A DNA stretch of 11,632 nt, from the NCBI GenBank assembly GCA_048938295.1, contig JBHLMI010000047.1, positions 1 through 11,632 on the forward strand, in the 5' to 3' direction. The notes beneath the pieces are model-generated. The model searched no databases. It was not told the DNA's origin and saw nothing but the letters and a program-made list of their open reading frames with translations. The translations under genes and the position numbers were made by a program. Of the stretch, positions 1 to 11,446 are shown piece after piece. This stretch comes from Promethearchaeota archaeon. GTDB taxonomy: Archaea; Asgardarchaeota; Hermodarchaeia; Hermodarchaeales; Hermodarchaeaceae. The number at the start of each line of letters is the position of its first letter. The first letter of the stretch is position 1.

Positions 1-84
1 TGGGGTCTACGAATGGGTAGATACCCCCGCGGCTTAGTCTTCGGGACGCTGACCCTTGGACAGGTCCCCCGCACAGCTGGTGGC
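1..84 (-). ncRNA. Unassigned GC-rich structured RNA candidate (5' part only, runs off window start)
   Basis: Minus strand reads GCCACCAGCUGUGCGG-GGGAC...GUCCC-GAAGACUAAG-CCGC-GGGGUAUCUAC-CCAUUC-GUAGACCCC, i.e. stacked hairpins just downstream of a BRE/TATA-like element. No family signature recognised. Confidence 0.35.
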
Positions 85-153: not shown

Positions 154-330
154 AGAGGTGGCGAGAATAACGCATGAACTACTTCTGCAATTAAGCAGGA
201 GTTTCCATCGAGTCCACTATCCATGGGTTGTAGGATAGGGCTGTGTGTCGATGCAAGCCATTCCAAAACTTTTGTAATGGCTCCCCGTTCACAAGGGGTT
301 GCTGCAATAGGAACCGAACCATGATGTTAA
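154..330 (-). ncRNA. Putative TnpB omegaRNA (reRNA): scaffold overlapping the tnpB 3' end, guide approx. 173->154
   Basis: Minus-strand hairpin ACTCCTGC-TTAATT-GCAGAAGT (202->181, one mismatch, stop codon in the loop) followed by AGTTCAT (180->174). The 5' boundary is a guess from typical omegaRNA length. Confidence 0.5.
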
Positions 331-1510
331 CTGCGGCATTTTGATCACGATTAAAGGGGGTTCCACAATTGCACTGGATAGTACGTTCTGATAACGGTCG
401 ATTTCGGATTCTACCACACACACAACAGGTCTTAGTTGTTCGTGCCTCGTCAATTCTTATTACTCTTTTACCTACGTTCAGGGCCTTGTAGGTTAAGAAT
501 TGGGCGAATCGCCCTAATAAGCCTGTGTTATAGATTGAATGGTTCAATGTTCGAATAGCCTTACATCTTCTGCGACCCTCCGAGGTTCGCCGTCTTTGTG
601 CCATAGACTTTACAGCAATATTACCGATAATGAAGGTGTGAGCCCGTGAATTTGTAATCACCACCTTTGATATTTTGTGTTGGAAATCTCGCATCTGGTT
701 GGCAAGTTTTCGGTACATCTTCTTCCATTTTCGATGATAGAAATGCCACTTCTTACTGGACTTCTGACAATAGTCACGGCGTGATTGCACCTCCCGAAGT
801 TTCTTTCTCCAGTATAGATCAGGGCGTCGACTCTGAATTTGGATAAATCTTCCATGCATGTTAACAGCTGTGATTAGGTTCGTGATGCCTAAGTCAATGG
901 CCTGGTATAATCCGTTATCCATAAAGGTAGGGACCTTTGAGGAAACAGTGATTGCTACAAACCACCGGTTCTTCGCATCTCGAACGATTTCTACTTGTTT
1001 GATTTCTCCCTTAAGTGACAACCAAGGCAATGCAAATTCAAGAACTATCTTCGAAGGATGTCGATGAGTGAACGTTATCGTCTTTCTTTCGATATTGATG
1101 TTAAATCCTGATTGATTGTAGCATAGAGTTGTGAAGAATTTCTTCCCTTTGAACCGGGGCGGTCTTGCGTCCTTACGACCTTTTTTCCTGCTAACGTAAA
1201 AGGATTTGAAATCAGCATCCAACTTTTGCAGGGTCATTTGGAGAACTTTGGAATAAACCCACTTATATTCTGGAAATTGATCTTTAAGACTGGGTAAAGC
1301 GTTCTGTTGCATCGAGTAGGTGATATAGTTTCGCTTAGTCTTTGGTCTCCTTCGATTTATTTCCCAATTTTGACGGCGTTCGGCTAAGGCAAAGTTGTAG
1401 AGGAGCCGACACTTCTCAGATAGAGCCCACATGATCTCCTCTTGTTGAGGTGTTGGTACGATTCGTATTTTTTGAGTCAGCATCTGATGGCTCATGCTAT
1501 CGATAATTTA
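174..1510 (-). mobile_element. IS200/IS605-family tnpB-only (IS1341-like) element; right end near 174, left end not defined
   Basis: tnpB ORF followed by a subterminal hairpin and GTAGTTCAT, resembling the GTAGTTCAC-type right ends of archaeal IS605-group elements. No tnpA between tnpB and the tRNA-Met promoter. The 1510 boundary is approximate. Confidence 0.6.
191..1495 (-). CDS. tnpB: RNA-guided endonuclease TnpB (rearranged RuvC-II type)
   Basis: N-terminal HTH-like KIRIVPTPQQEE...CRLLYNFAL, PRFKGK, RuvC-I AIDLG (D201), Zn finger CCVCG...CNCG, RuvC-III NRDQNAAVNI (D384). The real start may be Met5 at 1483. Confidence 0.95.
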   Translation of the reverse strand: MSHQMLTQKIRIVPTPQQEEIMWALSEKCRLLYNFALAERRQNWEINRRRPKTKRNYITYSMQQNALPSLKDQFPEYKWVYSKVLQMTLQKLDADFKSFYVSRKKGRKDARPPRFKGKKFFTTLCYNQSGFNINIERKTITFTHRHPSKIVLEFALPWLSLKGEIKQVEIVRDAKNRWFVAITVSSKVPTFMDNGLYQAIDLGITNLITAVNMHGRFIQIQSRRPDLYWRKKLREVQSRRDYCQKSSKKWHFYHRKWKKMYRKLANQMRDFQHKISKVVITNSRAHTFIIGNIAVKSMAQRRRTSEGRRRCKAIRTLNHSIYNTGLLGRFAQFLTYKALNVGKRVIRIDEARTTKTCCVCGRIRNRPLSERTIQCNCGTPFNRDQNAAVNIMVRFLLQQPLVNGEPLQKFWNGLHRHTALSYNPWIVDSMETPA

Positions 1511-1593
1511 CCATTTTTAGTTTTTCAGTATGAGGGGGTTACGGATAACTATCGACGTGCTTCAGTCCTTCCATAAGTGCTAGAGATTTTCTG

Positions 1594-1608
1594 CAAAATA
1601 GTTAAAAG
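1594..1608 (+). promoter_or_regulatory. Putative BRE/TATA promoter for the tRNA-Met/tRNA-Thr pair
   Basis: CAAAA-TAG-TTAAAAG about 23 nt upstream of tRNA-Met. Confidence 0.5.
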
Positions 1609-2885: not shown

Positions 2886-3476
2886 CTATTTTTCAGCAAC
2901 AATATCAGCAGGGGATACAAGATAGTACGTTGTTTCCCCCTGTCGGTCTAACACTGCAAGCATCAATTTCTTCCGGTTACGTTTCGCTTGTTTGCTAAAC
3001 GCATCCAGCTCTTCCACCTTCAAGGGAGAACCCTCAGAAATCGCGCAAACAAAATACTGAGCAGTTGCCTCATTGAGTTTAGCGCCTCTAGGATATACGC
3101 GGAACAACAATCCTTTCCCATACCCCGTCCGCACTACATATCCTCGGCTTCGAAGATCACTGTATACAAGAAAACGAGTCCAAAGACCCGGATGCCCCTC
3201 TGATAAGCGCATCAGCAGCAAAGAAAATTCCAGCTCCTCCTTTCGTGGCAGACTCACCGCTATACGCTGTCGCCGAGCCAATAATAGCGCCTCTTCAGGC
3301 TCAAGTTCTAATTTCTGCTCACCCTTGAGCGTACCATAATACCCCGCCTCATACAACACAGACGCATACTCACCTTCCACCACCACTTTCCCCCGAATTA
3401 GTCTCGCCGGAATAGGTTCATCAGGGAGCGGAAGGCGCTCCTCTTCTGAAAATCGATCCTCATTTTCCTCTGCCAT
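2886..3476 (-). CDS. endA: tRNA splicing endonuclease subunit, probably the structural (non-catalytic) subunit
   Basis: EndA family motifs YYG..., LEPEEALLL, VYSDLRSRGYVVR, RKKLMLAVLD..G..TYY. The catalytic His position is Thr138 and the KFGxDF motif is degenerate. Confidence 0.9.
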   Translation of the reverse strand: MAEENEDRFSEEERLPLPDEPIPARLIRGKVVVEGEYASVLYEAGYYGTLKGEQKLELEPEEALLLARRQRIAVSLPRKEELEFSLLLMRLSEGHPGLWTRFLVYSDLRSRGYVVRTGYGKGLLFRVYPRGAKLNEATAQYFVCAISEGSPLKVEELDAFSKQAKRNRKKLMLAVLDRQGETTYYLVSPADIVAEK

Positions 3477-4074: not shown

Positions 4075-4207
4075 CCCGGCGTAGCTCAATCTGGTAGAGC
4101 GTCTGGCTGTAGGTACACACCGCACCTCGAGCCATTATGGCAATGACCCGGTGTCAACCAACGCAGACACCAGATGGTTCCTGGTTCAAATCCGGGCGCC
4201 GGGACCA
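4075..4207 (+). tRNA. tRNA-Tyr(GUA) with a 56-nt canonical 37/38 intron (4113-4168)
   Basis: CCCGGCG/CGCCGGG acceptor (C1-G72), A73-CCA, UCUGG/CCAGA anticodon stem, short variable loop, central helix CUGU/GCAG with bulge AC|A. Confidence 0.95.
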
Positions 4208-4276: not shown

Positions 4277-4385
4277 GCCCAAGTAGTGTAGCTCGGTCTA
4301 TCATCTGGGACTGTCAACGGTCGATGATGATTCATTGATCTGCGGATCTCCTAGGACTCGGGTTCAAATCCCGGCTTGGGCGCCA
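4277..4385 (+). tRNA. tRNA-Asp(GUC) with a 31-nt canonical 37/38 intron (4317-4347)
   Basis: GCCCAAG/CUUGGGC acceptor, G73-CCA, UGGGA/UCCUA anticodon stem, central helix CUGU/GCGG, bulges CA|A and AU|C, intron hairpin GGUCGAUGA/UCAUUGAUC. Confidence 0.94.
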
Positions 4386-5412: not shown

Positions 5413-8400
5413 ATGGCACTTTCGACTGAAGACCGTTGGGCAGTTATGAAATCCTTCTTTCTCTCGAAGGGTTTAGTCCGGCAGCACCTGGACTCGTACA
5501 ATCACTTTGTTGAGCGGCGGATTCAACAGATTGTAAGTGATGTTGGAAAGGTCGAGCCCGATATTCCGAACTATTATGTGCGCCTTGGACGTGTTGAGGT
5601 TCAAAATCCTTCCGTACGTGAGGCGGACGGGTCGGTCCGTAATATCGCCCCTGCGGAAGCGCGGATTCGAAACCTCACCTATTCTTCTCCCATTTACTTA
5701 GAAATGACTCCCGTATATCGGGATGAGAAAACCGGGATGGAGTATGATGAAGAAACAATTAGTGTGTATGTGGGCCGGCTTCCCATTATGCTCAAATCTG
5801 CGTTTTGCCGGCTCTCGGCAATGACGCCGGAAGAACTCGTTGAAGCCGGTGAAGATCCAAATGATCCTGGTGGCTATTTCATCATTAACGGGTCAGAGCG
5901 CGTGCTTGTCACACAGGAAGATCTTGCGCCTAACCGCATCCTCATCGAAGAAGCGACGAGTAGCAGCTCGTGTACACACATGGCCAAGGTGTTCTCAACC
6001 GCCCGAGGATTTCGAGCCCCCGTGACCATGGAGCGACGGGCTGATCATACGTTTCGCGTATCATTTCCATCAGTACCAGGAAAAATTCCTTTAGTCGTTC
6101 TGATGCGGGCCCTGGGCCTGGTTACCGATCGCGAAATCGTTTCGGCAATCACTGACGACGCAACACTCGCGCAAGAACTAATTCCTAGTTTTCATGCAGC
6201 GGAATCATTAGTAGCTCCGAAGGACCCCCAAACCACTCGTGAAAATGCCTTGGATTATATTGGTAAACGGGTTGCCGTTGGTCAAACAAAGGATTACCGT
6301 CTCCGCCGAGCCGAACAGGTGCTCAACCGCTACCTGCTACCTCACGTAGGGACAGATACAGGGTCTGCAGTGAGTAAGGCCCATTATGTTGGTCAAATGA
6401 CCCAGCGCCTTCTTGAACTCAGCGTCAATCGACGAAATCAAGATGACAAGGATCACTATGCGAATAAACGGCTCAAACTTGCTGGAGACTTGTTGACTAG
6501 TCTGTTTCGAGTAGCATTCCTCAATCTTTGTCGCGACATCAAATACCAGCTTGAACGCACCGCCACGCGAGGCCGCAAACCAAACATCAAAACCGCCGTA
6601 CGAGCCGACGTGATTACCGAAAGGCTGCGCCATGCCCTTGCCACAGGAAACTGGGTTGGGGGAAAGGCAGGAGTGAGTCAGCTACTTGATCGCGTCAACT
6701 ACATGTCGTCAATAAGTCACCTTCGCCGCGTGGTATCACCTCTCAGTCGCAGCCAACCACACTTCGAAGCCCGAGACCTACATCCAACCCATTGGGGCAA
6801 AATTTGTCCAAATGAGACGCCTGAAGGTCCCAACTGTGGACTTGTAAAGAATCTCGCTTTAATGTCATACATCTCAGTGGGTTCTGATGAAGCCGAAGTG
6901 GAAGAAGCTCTCTTAACCCTTAAAGTCCAACCTATCGATGCTAAAGCCGACACGGCTAAGAAGGGTGCCTACGTTTATCTAAATGGTCGATTTGTCGGCA
7001 ACCATACACAACCCGAATTATTAGTTACTCGCCTTCGTGATCGTCGCCAGCGGAACGAGCTCAGCGATCAAGTAAACGTCGCCTTCTATCCCGACACCAA
7101 TGAGGTGGAAATCAACTCTGACGCGGGACGCGTTCGTCGTCCCCTTATCATCGTCAAAGATGGCGCTCCGCTTCTGGAAAAGCAACATATAGAGCGCGTA
7201 CGGAATCGTGAGATATCTTGGGATGACTTGGTGAAAGCAGGGATAATCGAATATCTTGATGCAGAAGAAGAAGAAAACACTCTCATTGCCATGAACCTTG
7301 AGGATATAACGCCAGAACACACTCATCTCGAAATTGTCCCTGAAACGATTTTAGGCATTTGTGCAAGCCTTGTCCCCTTTGCTGAACACAACCAATCCCC
7401 ACGCAACACTTACGAAGCAGGCATGGCCAAACAAGCTCTCGGTCTCTATTCAGCGAACTTCGGCCTCCGAGTGGACACACGCAGTCACATTCTGCATTAT
7501 GTTCAAAGCCCCATTGTCACAACACGACCCATGGAAGTAATTGGGTATCATCGACGCCCTGCAGGACAAAACTTCATTGTAGCCATTCACTCCTTCCAAG
7601 GCTACAACATCGAAGATGCCCTAGTGCTCAACAAAGCTTCTATTGAACGGGGTATTGCCCGATCTTCATTCTTCCGAAGCTATGACGCCGAGGAACGCAA
7701 GTATCCGGGTGGCCAAGAAGACAAATTCGAAATTCCCAGCCGCGAAGTGCGTGGATACCGAGCATCAGAAGCCTATCGACTGCTCAGTGAAGACGGTGTC
7801 ATCGAACCTGAATTCCAAGTTGCTGGCGATGAAATCCTCATCGGGCGAACCAGTCCCCCACGGTTCTTAGAAGAATACACCGAACTTGAAGTCCCTGGAC
7901 CCAAGCGCCGCGAAACATCAATCAGCCTCCGTCACGGAGAAGAAGGTACAATCGATAAAGTGCTCATAACAGAAACGATTGACGGAAACCGCCTGGTCAA
8001 AGTAAAAGTCAGGGATGAACGCATACCCGAATTAGGCGATAAATTTGCAAGTCGCCATGGACAAAAAGGTGTCATTGGACTCCTCGCCCCACAAGAAGAC
8101 ATGCCTTTCACCGAATCAGGAATCGTACCCGACCTCGTAGTCAATGCTCATGCCTTCCCCAGCCGCATGACCCTCGGACAAATCCTTGAATCTATGGGCG
8201 GCAAAATCGGCTGCTTACAAGGCAAACCAATCGACGGCACTCCGTTCTCTGGAAAGAAGCTAGATCAAATGTTCCGTGATCTCCACAATCTTGGCTTCAA
8301 ATATAGCGGGCGAGAAACGATGTATAACGGAGTGACAGGTCACAAATATGACGTTGACCTATTCGTCGGTGTGGTTTACTATCAGAAACTCCACCATCTT

Positions 8401-8775
8401 GTTGCAGATAAGATGCATGCACGTGCCCGAGGCCCAGTGCAAATTCTGACACGCCAGCCCACCGAAGGCCGAGCACGAGAGGGTGGACTGCGCTTCGGTG
8501 AAATGGAGCGAGACTGCTTAATTGGCCACGGAGCAGCACTACTACTCCGCGAACGACTATTAGAAGAATCTGACAAATACACAGCGATGGTTTGTGAAGA
8601 ATGTGGTATGCTAGCCGAATATGATCGAAATCGTGATCGGTTCCGATGCCGTGTCTGTGCACCTAAAACAACCACAATTAGCCGAGTTGAAATGTCCTAT
8701 GCATTCAAACTCGTCATACAAGAGCTAATATCACTTGGTATATGGCCTCGACTGAAATTAACTGACAGAACATGA
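5413..8775 (+). CDS. rpoB: DNA-directed RNA polymerase subunit B (Rpo2, undivided)
   Basis: 1120 aa; GGYFIINGSE, RDLHPTHWGKICPNETPEGPNCGLVKNL, GDKFASRHGQKG, RFGEMERDC and a C-terminal Zn finger. Confidence 0.99.
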   Translation: MALSTEDRWAVMKSFFLSKGLVRQHLDSYNHFVERRIQQIVSDVGKVEPDIPNYYVRLGRVEVQNPSVREADGSVRNIAPAEARIRNLTYSSPIYLEMTPVYRDEKTGMEYDEETISVYVGRLPIMLKSAFCRLSAMTPEELVEAGEDPNDPGGYFIINGSERVLVTQEDLAPNRILIEEATSSSSCTHMAKVFSTARGFRAPVTMERRADHTFRVSFPSVPGKIPLVVLMRALGLVTDREIVSAITDDATLAQELIPSFHAAESLVAPKDPQTTRENALDYIGKRVAVGQTKDYRLRRAEQVLNRYLLPHVGTDTGSAVSKAHYVGQMTQRLLELSVNRRNQDDKDHYANKRLKLAGDLLTSLFRVAFLNLCRDIKYQLERTATRGRKPNIKTAVRADVITERLRHALATGNWVGGKAGVSQLLDRVNYMSSISHLRRVVSPLSRSQPHFEARDLHPTHWGKICPNETPEGPNCGLVKNLALMSYISVGSDEAEVEEALLTLKVQPIDAKADTAKKGAYVYLNGRFVGNHTQPELLVTRLRDRRQRNELSDQVNVAFYPDTNEVEINSDAGRVRRPLIIVKDGAPLLEKQHIERVRNREISWDDLVKAGIIEYLDAEEEENTLIAMNLEDITPEHTHLEIVPETILGICASLVPFAEHNQSPRNTYEAGMAKQALGLYSANFGLRVDTRSHILHYVQSPIVTTRPMEVIGYHRRPAGQNFIVAIHSFQGYNIEDALVLNKASIERGIARSSFFRSYDAEERKYPGGQEDKFEIPSREVRGYRASEAYRLLSEDGVIEPEFQVAGDEILIGRTSPPRFLEEYTELEVPGPKRRETSISLRHGEEGTIDKVLITETIDGNRLVKVKVRDERIPELGDKFASRHGQKGVIGLLAPQEDMPFTESGIVPDLVVNAHAFPSRMTLGQILESMGGKIGCLQGKPIDGTPFSGKKLDQMFRDLHNLGFKYSGRETMYNGVTGHKYDVDLFVGVVYYQKLHHLVADKMHARARGPVQILTRQPTEGRAREGGLRFGEMERDCLIGHGAALLLRERLLEESDKYTAMVCEECGMLAEYDRNRDRFRCRVCAPKTTTISRVEMSYAFKLVIQELISLGIWPRLKLTDRT

Positions 8776-8797
8776 TAATGAAAAGAGGAAAAAAACA

Positions 8798-11446
8798 ATG
8801 TCACACCCCCTCAAACAGATTGGAAGCGTCTGGTTCGGACTACTCTCCCCTGAAATAATTCGTAAAATGAGTGTAACACAGGTTATTACAGCTGACACCT
8901 ATGACGAAGACGGCCTTCCCATTTCCTCTGGACTGATGGACCCCAAACTAGGCACCATTGAACCCGGTCAGCGCTGCAAATCCTGTGGAAACCGAGTCGG
9001 CGAATGTCCTGGTCACTTTGGCCACATTGAACTGGCTCGTCCTGTCGTGCACGTCAGCTTCGCGAAGGAGATTAAGAAATTCCTCAAGGCACTCTGTAGA
9101 CGCTGTGCTCGATTAAAACTAAAAGAGGAATCTCGACAAACACTCAAAGAACGAATTGATACGTACTATGAAAAATACGGTCATTTAGACCAAGTTCTCG
9201 CTGATGAAGTCCTAAAAGAAGCTGGAAAAGCCACCACATGCCCCCACTGCGAGGCAGAACAATACAAAATCAAGTTCGAAAAACCTACAACCTTCTACGA
9301 AGAGAAGATGGAAGGCAGTGTCCGCCTTACACCTACTGATATTCGCGACCGACTAGAACGAATCACACCTGAAGATGCCTACCTCATGGGCATCGACACC
9401 CGTGTCTCCAAGGCTGAATGGATGATTCTCACCGTCCAACCTGTACCTCCAGTAGCAGTTCGTCCATCCATCACATTAGAATCTGGTGTAAAATCAGAAG
9501 ATGACCTTACCCACAAGCTTGTGGATGTCATCCGAATTAATCAACGACTCCGAGAAAACATCGAAGCTGGTGCACCACAACTGATTGTGGAAGACCTTTG
9601 GGAGCTGCTTCAATATCATATAACTACTTATTTCAATAATGAAGTTTCTGGCATTCCACCAGCGCGCCATCGATCCGGTCGTGCCTTACGAACATTAGCC
9701 CAACGATTAAAAGGAAAGGAAGGGCGATTCCGAAGCAATCTTTCTGGAAAACGTGTCGACTTTTCTGCTCGAACAGTGATTTCGCCTGATCCTAACCTCT
9801 CCATCAACGAAGTAGGCGTTCCTTTAGAAATTGCCAAAACCCTAACGGTTCCTGAACGGGTCACCGAATGGAATATCGAAGATATGCGGGAACTCGTCCT
9901 TAAGGGTCCTCAGGGCTACCCAGGCTGTAATTATGTTGTACGCCCTGATGGGAAACGCATTGATCTACGCTATGTAAAAGATCGGAAGACTAACGCCGAT
10001 GGATTAGCCCCTGGCTACGTGATTGAAAGACACCTTCGGTCAGGGGATATTGTCCTCTTCAACCGTCAACCGTCACTTCACCGTATGTCTATCATGGCCC
10101 ATGAAGTGAAGGTAATGAAATACCGTACATTCCGGCTCCACCTTGTTGTCTGCCCGCCGTATAACGCAGATTTCGATGGCGACGAAATGAATCTCCACGT
10201 CCCCCAAAGCGAAGAAGCTCGAGCTGAAGCACGAATTCTCATGCTTGTTCAAGAACAGATTCTTAGCCCCCGTTATGGTGGTCCTATAATCGGCGGAATT
10301 CAAGACTACATCTCTTCCGCGTTCTTACTTACGCGAAAAGGCTCAATATTCAATAAACGCCAAACCTGCCAACTTTTAGCCTCAGCTGGCTACCGAGAAG
10401 ACCTTCCACCACCCACCATCAAAGAGCCCGAACCAATGTGGACCGGGAAACAAATCTTTAGCATGCTGCTGCCAAAGGGTCTGAACCTATCCTTGAAAGC
10501 CCGAATTTGCCAGAAATGCGATAAGTGCCAAAAAGAAAGGTGCCCATATGATGCCTATGTGCTCATTCGTGACGGTCAGCTCCTAACCGGTGTAATTGAT
10601 AAGAAGGCCATTGGAGCTGCACAACCCGAAAGTGTTCTACACAGAATTGCAAAAGACTATGGAAACTCTGCAGCTCGAAGATTTCTCGACGCGCTCTGTC
10701 CCCTACTTGTTGTACTCATCACCAACATGGGCTTTAGCATGGGAATTGATGATGTCATTCTCACACCAACTGCCATACGGCAAATTGAACAGATTCTCAA
10801 AGACGCAGAAGCAGAAGGAAGCCAGTTAGTTCAAATCTATGAAGCAGATCAACTTCAGCGGCTTCCAGGTCGTTCAATTGAGGAAACCTTCGAAATGAAA
10901 ATGATTGAGATTCTTGCTCGTGCACGTGACGAAGCTGGCGAAGTGGCGGCACAACAACTCGGACTTGATAAGCATGCGGTAATAATGACTGGTACAGGTG
11001 CGAAAGGTAACCCCCTTAACTTGGCACAAATGGCCGCCAGCGTTGGGCAACAAGCGGTCCGTGGTCAACGCATCTCTCGAGGGTATCGGAGACGAACACT
11101 CCCCCACTTTGTTCAAGGCGATTTGTCTCCACAGGCTCGAGGATTTGTGGTTGCCAGTTATCGAAAAGGATTGAATCCTATCGAATTCTTCTTCCATGCA
11201 ATGGGAGGCCGAGAAGGCTTAGTTGATACTGCTGTTCGAACCAGCACTAGTGGGTATATGCAACGCCGGCTCATCAACGCACTCCAAGACATCAAAGTCG
11301 AATACGATGGTACCGTACGAAATTCAAACGGAGAAATCATCCAATTCAAATATGGCGAAGATGGAGTCGACCCCGCTCGAAGCGATCATGGCAAGGCAGT
11401 AAACCTTGACGTAATCATTGAACGCGTCTTAAGCCAAGAGAAGTGA
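8798..11446 (+). CDS. rpoA1: DNA-directed RNA polymerase subunit A' (Rpo1N)
   Basis: 882 aa; CPGHFGHIEL, GKRVDFSARTVISPD, catalytic NADFDGDEMN, bridge helix DTAVRTSTSGYMQRRL. Confidence 0.99.
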   Translation: MSHPLKQIGSVWFGLLSPEIIRKMSVTQVITADTYDEDGLPISSGLMDPKLGTIEPGQRCKSCGNRVGECPGHFGHIELARPVVHVSFAKEIKKFLKALCRRCARLKLKEESRQTLKERIDTYYEKYGHLDQVLADEVLKEAGKATTCPHCEAEQYKIKFEKPTTFYEEKMEGSVRLTPTDIRDRLERITPEDAYLMGIDTRVSKAEWMILTVQPVPPVAVRPSITLESGVKSEDDLTHKLVDVIRINQRLRENIEAGAPQLIVEDLWELLQYHITTYFNNEVSGIPPARHRSGRALRTLAQRLKGKEGRFRSNLSGKRVDFSARTVISPDPNLSINEVGVPLEIAKTLTVPERVTEWNIEDMRELVLKGPQGYPGCNYVVRPDGKRIDLRYVKDRKTNADGLAPGYVIERHLRSGDIVLFNRQPSLHRMSIMAHEVKVMKYRTFRLHLVVCPPYNADFDGDEMNLHVPQSEEARAEARILMLVQEQILSPRYGGPIIGGIQDYISSAFLLTRKGSIFNKRQTCQLLASAGYREDLPPPTIKEPEPMWTGKQIFSMLLPKGLNLSLKARICQKCDKCQKERCPYDAYVLIRDGQLLTGVIDKKAIGAAQPESVLHRIAKDYGNSAARRFLDALCPLLVVLITNMGFSMGIDDVILTPTAIRQIEQILKDAEAEGSQLVQIYEADQLQRLPGRSIEETFEMKMIEILARARDEAGEVAAQQLGLDKHAVIMTGTGAKGNPLNLAQMAASVGQQAVRGQRISRGYRRRTLPHFVQGDLSPQARGFVVASYRKGLNPIEFFFHAMGGREGLVDTAVRTSTSGYMQRRLINALQDIKVEYDGTVRNSNGEIIQFKYGEDGVDPARSDHGKAVNLDVIIERVLSQEK

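Follow-up and report, generated by a model that had tools for sequence, protein, structure and literature searches.

TnpB proteins with a relocated RuvC-II glutamate have been described under several names: 'TnpB2' (Jiang et al., 2023, Sci Adv, PMC10530073), the 'Ealt + D-hydrophobic-G' clade (Yoon et al., 2023, NAR, PMC10711439) and the RIIr branches, such as RIIr-5 (Altae-Tran et al., 2023, PNAS, PMC10691335). The alternative glutamate was defined by the Ealt pattern ExxxxxxCxxC (Yoon et al., 2023, PMC10711439), and its combination with a DPG motif in RuvC-I was given as the fingerprint of Fanzors and pro-Fanzors (PMC10711439); the shift of the glutamate between strands beta-4 and beta-5 was described by Altae-Tran et al. 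(2023, PMC10691335). TvTnpB of Thermoplasma volcanium, an example of TnpB2, was found to cleave DNA in a TAM-dependent manner and with no collateral activity (PMC10530073). In the Fanzor2 of Acanthamoeba polyphaga mimivirus (ApmFanzor2 or ApmFNuc, PDB 9b0l), Asp324, Glu467 and Asp501 were assigned as the Mg-coordinating triad in the structure paper (PMC11832414), and the D324A and E467A substitutions were assayed as catalytic-dead mutants (PMC10530073). By comparison, ISDra2 TnpB of Deinococcus radiodurans (PDB 8h1j and 8exa) carries the canonical glutamate (GTEHL), uses the TAM TTGAT and has collateral ssDNA cleavage, whereas the rearranged class was reported without it (PMC10530073). The statement of the original prediction that Fanzors and a related prokaryotic TnpB clade use an alternative glutamate agrees with this literature, in which the arrangement was published as Ealt, TnpB2 and RIIr (PMC10711439, PMC10530073, PMC10691335).

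In the window, by which we mean the whole 11,632-nt stretch of DNA that was analysed, the longest ORF over the site (191 to 1495, minus strand; 434 aa by translation) very probably encodes a TnpB of this known class. Its RuvC-II glutamate position is taken by Gly291, Glu350 would serve instead within a D201-E350-D384 triad, and the gene lies in a non-autonomous, tnpB-only element of IS200/IS605 type, with an omegaRNA at its 3′ side and a proposed role in homing. Three Pfam domains, HTH_OrfB_IS605, OrfB_IS605 and Cas12f1-like_TNB, scored over their cut-offs in the 434-aa ORF, and NCBIfam guided_TnpB (NF040570) matched it with 211 bits, well above the cut-off of 100. Pfam, NCBIfam and fold matches together delineated the domain architecture of TnpB, with HTH/WED-REC, a split RuvC and a zinc finger. 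Since the homologs begin at the second Met (first residues MLTQKIRI), the start of tnpB is probably at window 1483, which would give a 430-aa protein and lower all residue numbers by 4; the numbers used here are those of the 434-aa ORF.

Every residue and codon named in the original prediction, which had D201 and D384 intact, a glycine at the RuvC-II position and E350 ahead of the zinc finger, was confirmed by script. On the minus strand, RuvC-I Asp201 (AIDLG) is encoded at window 893 to 895, Gly291 at the canonical RuvC-II glutamate position (FIIGNIAVKSM) at 623 to 625, the predicted alternative catalytic Glu350 (RIDEARTTKTC) at 446 to 448 and RuvC-III Asp384 (NRDQN) at 344 to 346, and the zinc finger cysteines C357, C360, C375 and C377 lie within 365 to 427. 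E350 stands six residues ahead of the first CxxC (E350-ARTTKT-C357-CV-C360) and fits the ExxxxxxCxxC pattern. D201, G291, E350, D384 and the four cysteines showed no variation in 42 homologs of 52–77% identity; a lack of conservation of E350 among homologs had been named with the prediction as evidence that would speak against it.

The two glutamate positions were compared in a more distant set of 105 full-length representatives with 28–54% identity, drawn from 1.8 billion clusters. Among these, every one of the 38 with Gly at column 291 and a residue at column 350 had Glu at the latter, and the representatives with the canonical RuvC-II glutamate at column 291 had Glu at column 350 in none of 65. 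Pro occupied the E350 column in 52 of these 65, consistent with the VxPxxTS-type motif that the original prediction had placed at this site in canonical TnpBs, and ISDra2 TnpB carries Pro-type residues there. As judged from these sequences, the G291 plus E350 state and the E291 plus non-E350 state are mutually exclusive, far beyond chance. On a FastTree of the 105 representatives, a quick and unrooted tree built without Fanzor1, Fanzor2, pro-Fanzor or other published references, the 40 Ealt-side rows lay on one side of a single branch with a support of 99, with the query nested inside, and the glutamate trait changed once. Furthermore, the TnpB copy departed from columns of at least 90% conservation at 7 positions, all conservatively, against a family median of 6, and is without sign of decay.

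By sequence and profile alignment, D201, E350 and D384 aligned column for column with Asp324, Glu467 and Asp501 of ApmFanzor2, and FIIGNIAVKS of the TnpB came to lie opposite ICIGKLNVKS, with G291 at the Gly of the latter. The AF2 model, built from the 42 homologs with a pLDDT of 80.6, matched ISDra2 TnpB, several Cas12f structures and ApmFanzor2 in Foldseek, with an E value of 1e-16 for the TnpB/Cas12f folds. In its topology, G291 is at the end of the beta strand 287–292 and E350 directly follows the strand 344–349, which matches the beta-5 versus beta-4 shift of Altae-Tran et al. A phmmer register that set E278 of ISDra2 TnpB opposite I293 was rejected as a 2-residue slip from the shared IIG; G291 is taken as the equivalent of the canonical glutamate because the spacing to VKSM/VKGM and the ApmFanzor2 alignment both fix the register.

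The locus therefore shows what the rearranged class was described by, namely a non-acidic residue (Gly/Pro) at the canonical glutamate, a conserved alternative glutamate and a grouping with Ealt proteins. In common with TnpB2/Ealt/RIIr it has Gly at the RuvC-II glutamate, Glu six residues before CxxC, a hydrophobic middle residue in the RuvC-I DxG, DRDxN in RuvC-III, a length of ~400–440 aa, an omegaRNA at the gene 3′ end and an IS200/IS605 context. It differs from TvTnpB, whose TAM is NTGAC, in its candidate TAM TTTAA. With ISDra2 TnpB it shares domain order and fold over the full length (Foldseek E 1e-16; profile E 3.9e-27), an omegaRNA made of the gene 3′ end and the right element end, and an insertion 3′ of a 5-nt motif with no duplication. 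With ApmFanzor2 it shares the triad columns and the surroundings of the glutamate (VNEYLTTKTC compared with IDEARTTKTC), but only the C-terminal ~230 residues align well, and ApmFanzor2, which comes from a virus of eukaryotes and an IS607 context, carries a structured extension at its N terminus and reads DPG in RuvC-I, whereas the protein here is a compact archaeal TnpB with DLG.

The bounds of the element were determined from a sister genome (L090; RpoB 99% identical) that has the same gene neighbourhood without tnpB. Its uninterrupted site reads CCGTACCTTTTAA joined directly to GCATTATTCTC (longer right part, GCATTATTCTCAGGG), and at the occupied site here CCGTACCTTTTAA is followed by the element, beginning with CTATTTTGCAG and ending with GTAGTTCAT, and then by GCGTTATTCTCGCC, so that the element lies between TTTAA and GCGTTATTCTC in the host genome. 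The comparison of the two sites gives a tnpB-only element of IS200/IS605 type at window 174 to 1601 (minus strand; 1,428 bp), with no target-site duplication. Its left end comprises the 106 nt between the element boundary and the ORF (1496 to 1601, minus); conserved blocks such as GATAGTTATCC stand out in the aligned upstream regions, and the boundary is set by the empty site. The TTTAA at 1602 to 1606 (minus), directly 5′ of the left end, is the insertion target and candidate TAM. Insertion 3′ of TTTAA without duplication is the behaviour of IS200/IS605 elements, and a short 5′ motif, the lack of duplication and asymmetric ends were all found here. Precise excision in the sister lineage would explain the empty site of L090 equally well. 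Synteny with an Odinarchaeota-labelled rpoB-bearing contig (L010) was rejected, as its flanks are not homologous, which indicates a separate insertion.

The same boundaries were found in relatives. Homology ended exactly at the right end of the element, where nucleotide conservation, which spanned the final ~130 nt of the ORF and continued for 17 nt after its stop codon, broke off abruptly at GTAGTTCA(C/T), the last base being T here and C in most relatives. At the left boundary TTTAA was present in five of seven close relatives, which supports it as the candidate TAM, and the other two carried TTTAC and CTTAA. Six copies of a mobile sub-family, 90–96% identical and ~1,457 bp long, had different flanks and ended at the same GTAGTTCAC; the left flanks of mobile relatives were TTTAA, TTTTA or TTTA.

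At the 3′ end of tnpB lies a structured omegaRNA, which overlaps the gene and stops at the right element end. Its scaffold (window 174 to 319, minus) overlaps the last ~43 tnpB codons, extends 17 nt past the stop and ends with GTAGTTCAT. RNAalifold with 15 relatives gave five helices in the paired region 174 to 292, and compensatory changes occurred at 24 of the 38 pairs; 94.7% of the alignment cells were paired, compared with 30–42% with slid partners, double changes were found at 24 pairs against 3–6 in the slid controls, and none of 500 shuffles reached the observed values. The terminal GTTCAT pairs with GTGAAC upstream. A search of Rfam with the omegaRNA matched no family. Based on the known TnpB/omegaRNA layout, the predicted guide would be the ~20 nt of flank directly 3′ of the right end, GCGTTATTCTCGCCACCTCT (154 to 173, minus; length assumed), a sequence that is also found 3′ of TTTAA in the empty site of L090. 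In other genomes of the genus, four solo fragments (G005:C3:3447-3751, G006:C74:9419-9798, G006:C24:8940-9099 and G009:C90:4461-4590) matched only the last 130–380 nt of the element, its omegaRNA part, with 79–84% identity, and may represent either degenerate copies or stand-alone omegaRNA remnants.

By this layout, an omegaRNA would be transcribed from the 3′ end of tnpB, its scaffold ending with GTAGTTCAT and being followed by ~20 nt of flank as the guide. The complex would recognize 5′-TTTAA followed by a guide match, that is, the joint left by excision of the element; a cut at this joint and recombination with an occupied copy would restore the element. The original prediction had taken the protein for an active nuclease of the rearranged type and not for a dead TnpB. 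The arrangement shared with Fanzors was borne out, and conservation, covariation, the intact omegaRNA and the precise insertion with an empty site in the sister genome speak for a functional gene; the nuclease activity itself we infer, as we do the TAM function of TTTAA, the guide length and the homing role. By analogy with TvTnpB and Fanzors, the TnpB would be expected to lack collateral cleavage.

In its mobilising enzyme the locus differs from TnpB2/Ealt/RIIr systems, as neither the element nor the genome, which is 91.6% complete, yielded a transposase gene. Within its 1,428 bp the element has tnpB as the only gene and no TnpA, and Y1 TnpA, serine recombinase and Cas1 (PF01797, PF00239 and PF01867) gave no match in the genome. 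Since tnpB-only elements are common in the TnpB family, the missing TnpA, whether Y1 or serine, is no bar to membership. In Thermoplasmata relatives of the family, the gene directly upstream of tnpB is that of a Y1 TnpA. The single Y1 TnpA among the 14 other genus genomes searched (in G013) adjoins a different, canonical-Glu TnpB; it belongs to that IS605 element and was rejected as the mobiliser. Because no Y1, serine recombinase or Cas1 gene was found, yet the element shows precise presence and absence between genomes and has multi-copy relatives, one could think of an Asgard tnpB-only family that moves or persists without a known partner transposase, perhaps homing on promoters by means of an unrecognised mobilising enzyme or of TnpB-driven homing alone. 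Homing on promoters comes into question because TTTAA is similar to the TATA box of archaea and, at this site, falls on the likely TATA box of the neighbouring tRNA gene; overall, we regard this proposal as rather unlikely.

The best named matches of the RpoB encoded in the window were from Promethearchaeota, Hodarchaeota and Hermodarchaeota (92–95%), which identifies the host as an Asgard archaeon. Asgard MAGs frequently carry the TnpB family and account for most of the relatives with 52–77% identity, and the family occurs also in Methanoculleus, Thermoplasmata, Bathyarchaeota, DPANN archaea and a few bacteria; the nearest relative among 5.8 billion proteins was 77% identical. Ten of the 14 other genus genomes searched contained the family, with up to 10 matches per genome, and their relatives of this copy had at most 72% DNA identity. 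Two paralogs in its own genome (66% and 60% identical) carry the same glutamate arrangement, and a near-identical second copy was found neither there nor among the genus relatives.

The loss of the RuvC-II glutamate could also mean that the protein is catalytically dead or exapted, with no role left but RNA-guided DNA binding or regulation. Gly at the canonical position and the single copy in the genome would fit this explanation, and many inactivated, exapted TnpB branches were described by Altae-Tran et al. (2023, PMC10691335). However, the compensating E350 is invariant, strictly co-varies with Gly291 and aligns with the catalytic Glu467 of ApmFanzor2, and there is no defect in either Asp residue or in the zinc finger. 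Moreover, the element is delimited in the manner of a mobile IS, its site is empty in the sister genome, it is not fixed beside host genes, and it has relatives that are multi-copy and mobile. We therefore consider a dead or exapted TnpB very unlikely.

A further alternative is that the protein is a pro-Fanzor, a member of the prokaryotic lineage from which eukaryotic Fanzors arose, in this case within the archaeal group nearest to eukaryotes. The Ealt arrangement is common to Fanzors, the C-terminal RuvC half matched mimivirus Fanzor2 with E values of 8e-13 (single sequence) and 7e-21 (profile), and the host is an Asgard archaeon; the original prediction had called the nuclease of extra interest if its host were an Asgard archaeon, which implied a special Fanzor kinship. 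Against this, RuvC-I reads DLG and not DPG, the Leu after D201 being nearly invariant in the family, so that the Ealt-plus-DPG fingerprint is missing and the TnpB falls in the D-hydrophobic-G Ealt clade, which published trees set apart from the DPG/Fanzor clade (PMC10711439). The likeness to ISDra2 TnpB extends over the full length and is at least as strong (E 1.4e-13 with the single sequence, 3.9e-27 with the profile) as the partial one to Fanzor2, so the Asgard host adds no link to Fanzors, and no Fanzor1 structure was among the PDB matches. Host and context are likewise not those of Fanzors and pro-Fanzors (a eukaryote or giant virus, or a cyanobacterial IS607 element with a serine recombinase): the element is tnpB-only and IS605-like, its Thermoplasmata relatives come with a Y1 TnpA and not an IS607 serine recombinase, and the class is widespread in archaea, with family members also in a few bacteria. 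That the protein is a pro-Fanzor is thus extremely improbable, and neither the implied Fanzor kinship nor the extra interest attached to an Asgard host was sustained. It was also observed that ten metagenomic relatives, ~30–46% identical (P0128, P0133, P0138, P0154, P0157, P0169, P0177, P0198, P0244 and P0267), have both Ealt and a RuvC-I DPG motif, as in the published Fanzor fingerprint; they were scattered on the quick tree, with at least 4–5 changes, which suggests that DPG may have arisen repeatedly within the Ealt clade.

That another acidic residue completes the triad of an active enzyme, for example E306 in the loop 15 residues past G291, which is poorly modelled (pLDDT <50 for 295–301), with E350 being structural only, can hardly be credited, since E306 is outside the invariant and nearly invariant columns of the family, whereas E350 is invariant, aligns with the solved catalytic Glu467 and is present in perfect step with the loss of the canonical glutamate.

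The TnpB of the relocated-glutamate class described here is a new, cleanly delimited natural example from an Asgard archaeon, which comes with its element ends, an empty site, the candidate TAM TTTAA, a predicted guide and an omegaRNA structure. It offers a compact ~430-aa candidate for genome-editing screens and a ready construct to probe E350. The picture of TnpB and Fanzor evolution is unchanged by it: the arrangement has been in the literature since 2023, biochemical validation exists for one archaeal member, and DLG places the protein outside the Fanzor-specific lineage.

A probable tRNA with two introns, a long one after the anticodon loop and a second in the T arm, lies at window ~1628 to 1822 on the plus strand (acceptor GCCGAGG...CCTCGGCACCA); it was missed by ARAGORN and Rfam. 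Its likely TATA box (TTAAAA, 1602 to 1607) coincides with the TTTAA of the IS insertion, so that the region upstream of the tRNA promoter is now formed by the IS left end. Two further intron-containing tRNA genes were found on the plus strand at 4075 to 4204 and 4277 to 4382, with matches spanning 130 and 106 nt, and a tRNA-splicing endonuclease gene is located near them at 2886 to 3476 (minus). The window begins at a contig end, past which a second assembly (L009) extends, and the contig breaks inside an apparent tRNA-Leu(TAA) gene (window 1 to 74, minus; L009 ~6410 to 6565). The 5′ acceptor strand of this gene, GTGCGGGGG, is parted from the rest by a ~65-nt intron; Rfam matched model positions 9–63 only, with 27 bits, just below the cut-off, and ARAGORN missed it. 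Beyond the window start, L009 carries a second extra block of 2.25 kb (6923 to 9175) relative to L090 in the same tRNA cluster. A LAGLIDADG-like ORF (PF14528, E 1.7e-9) lies at L009 6868 to 7515, its first ~55 nt being common to L090, and a 377-aa TnpB of the canonical-glutamate type (IIVLEDL) is encoded in the block as well. The tRNA cluster is a hotspot of insertion.
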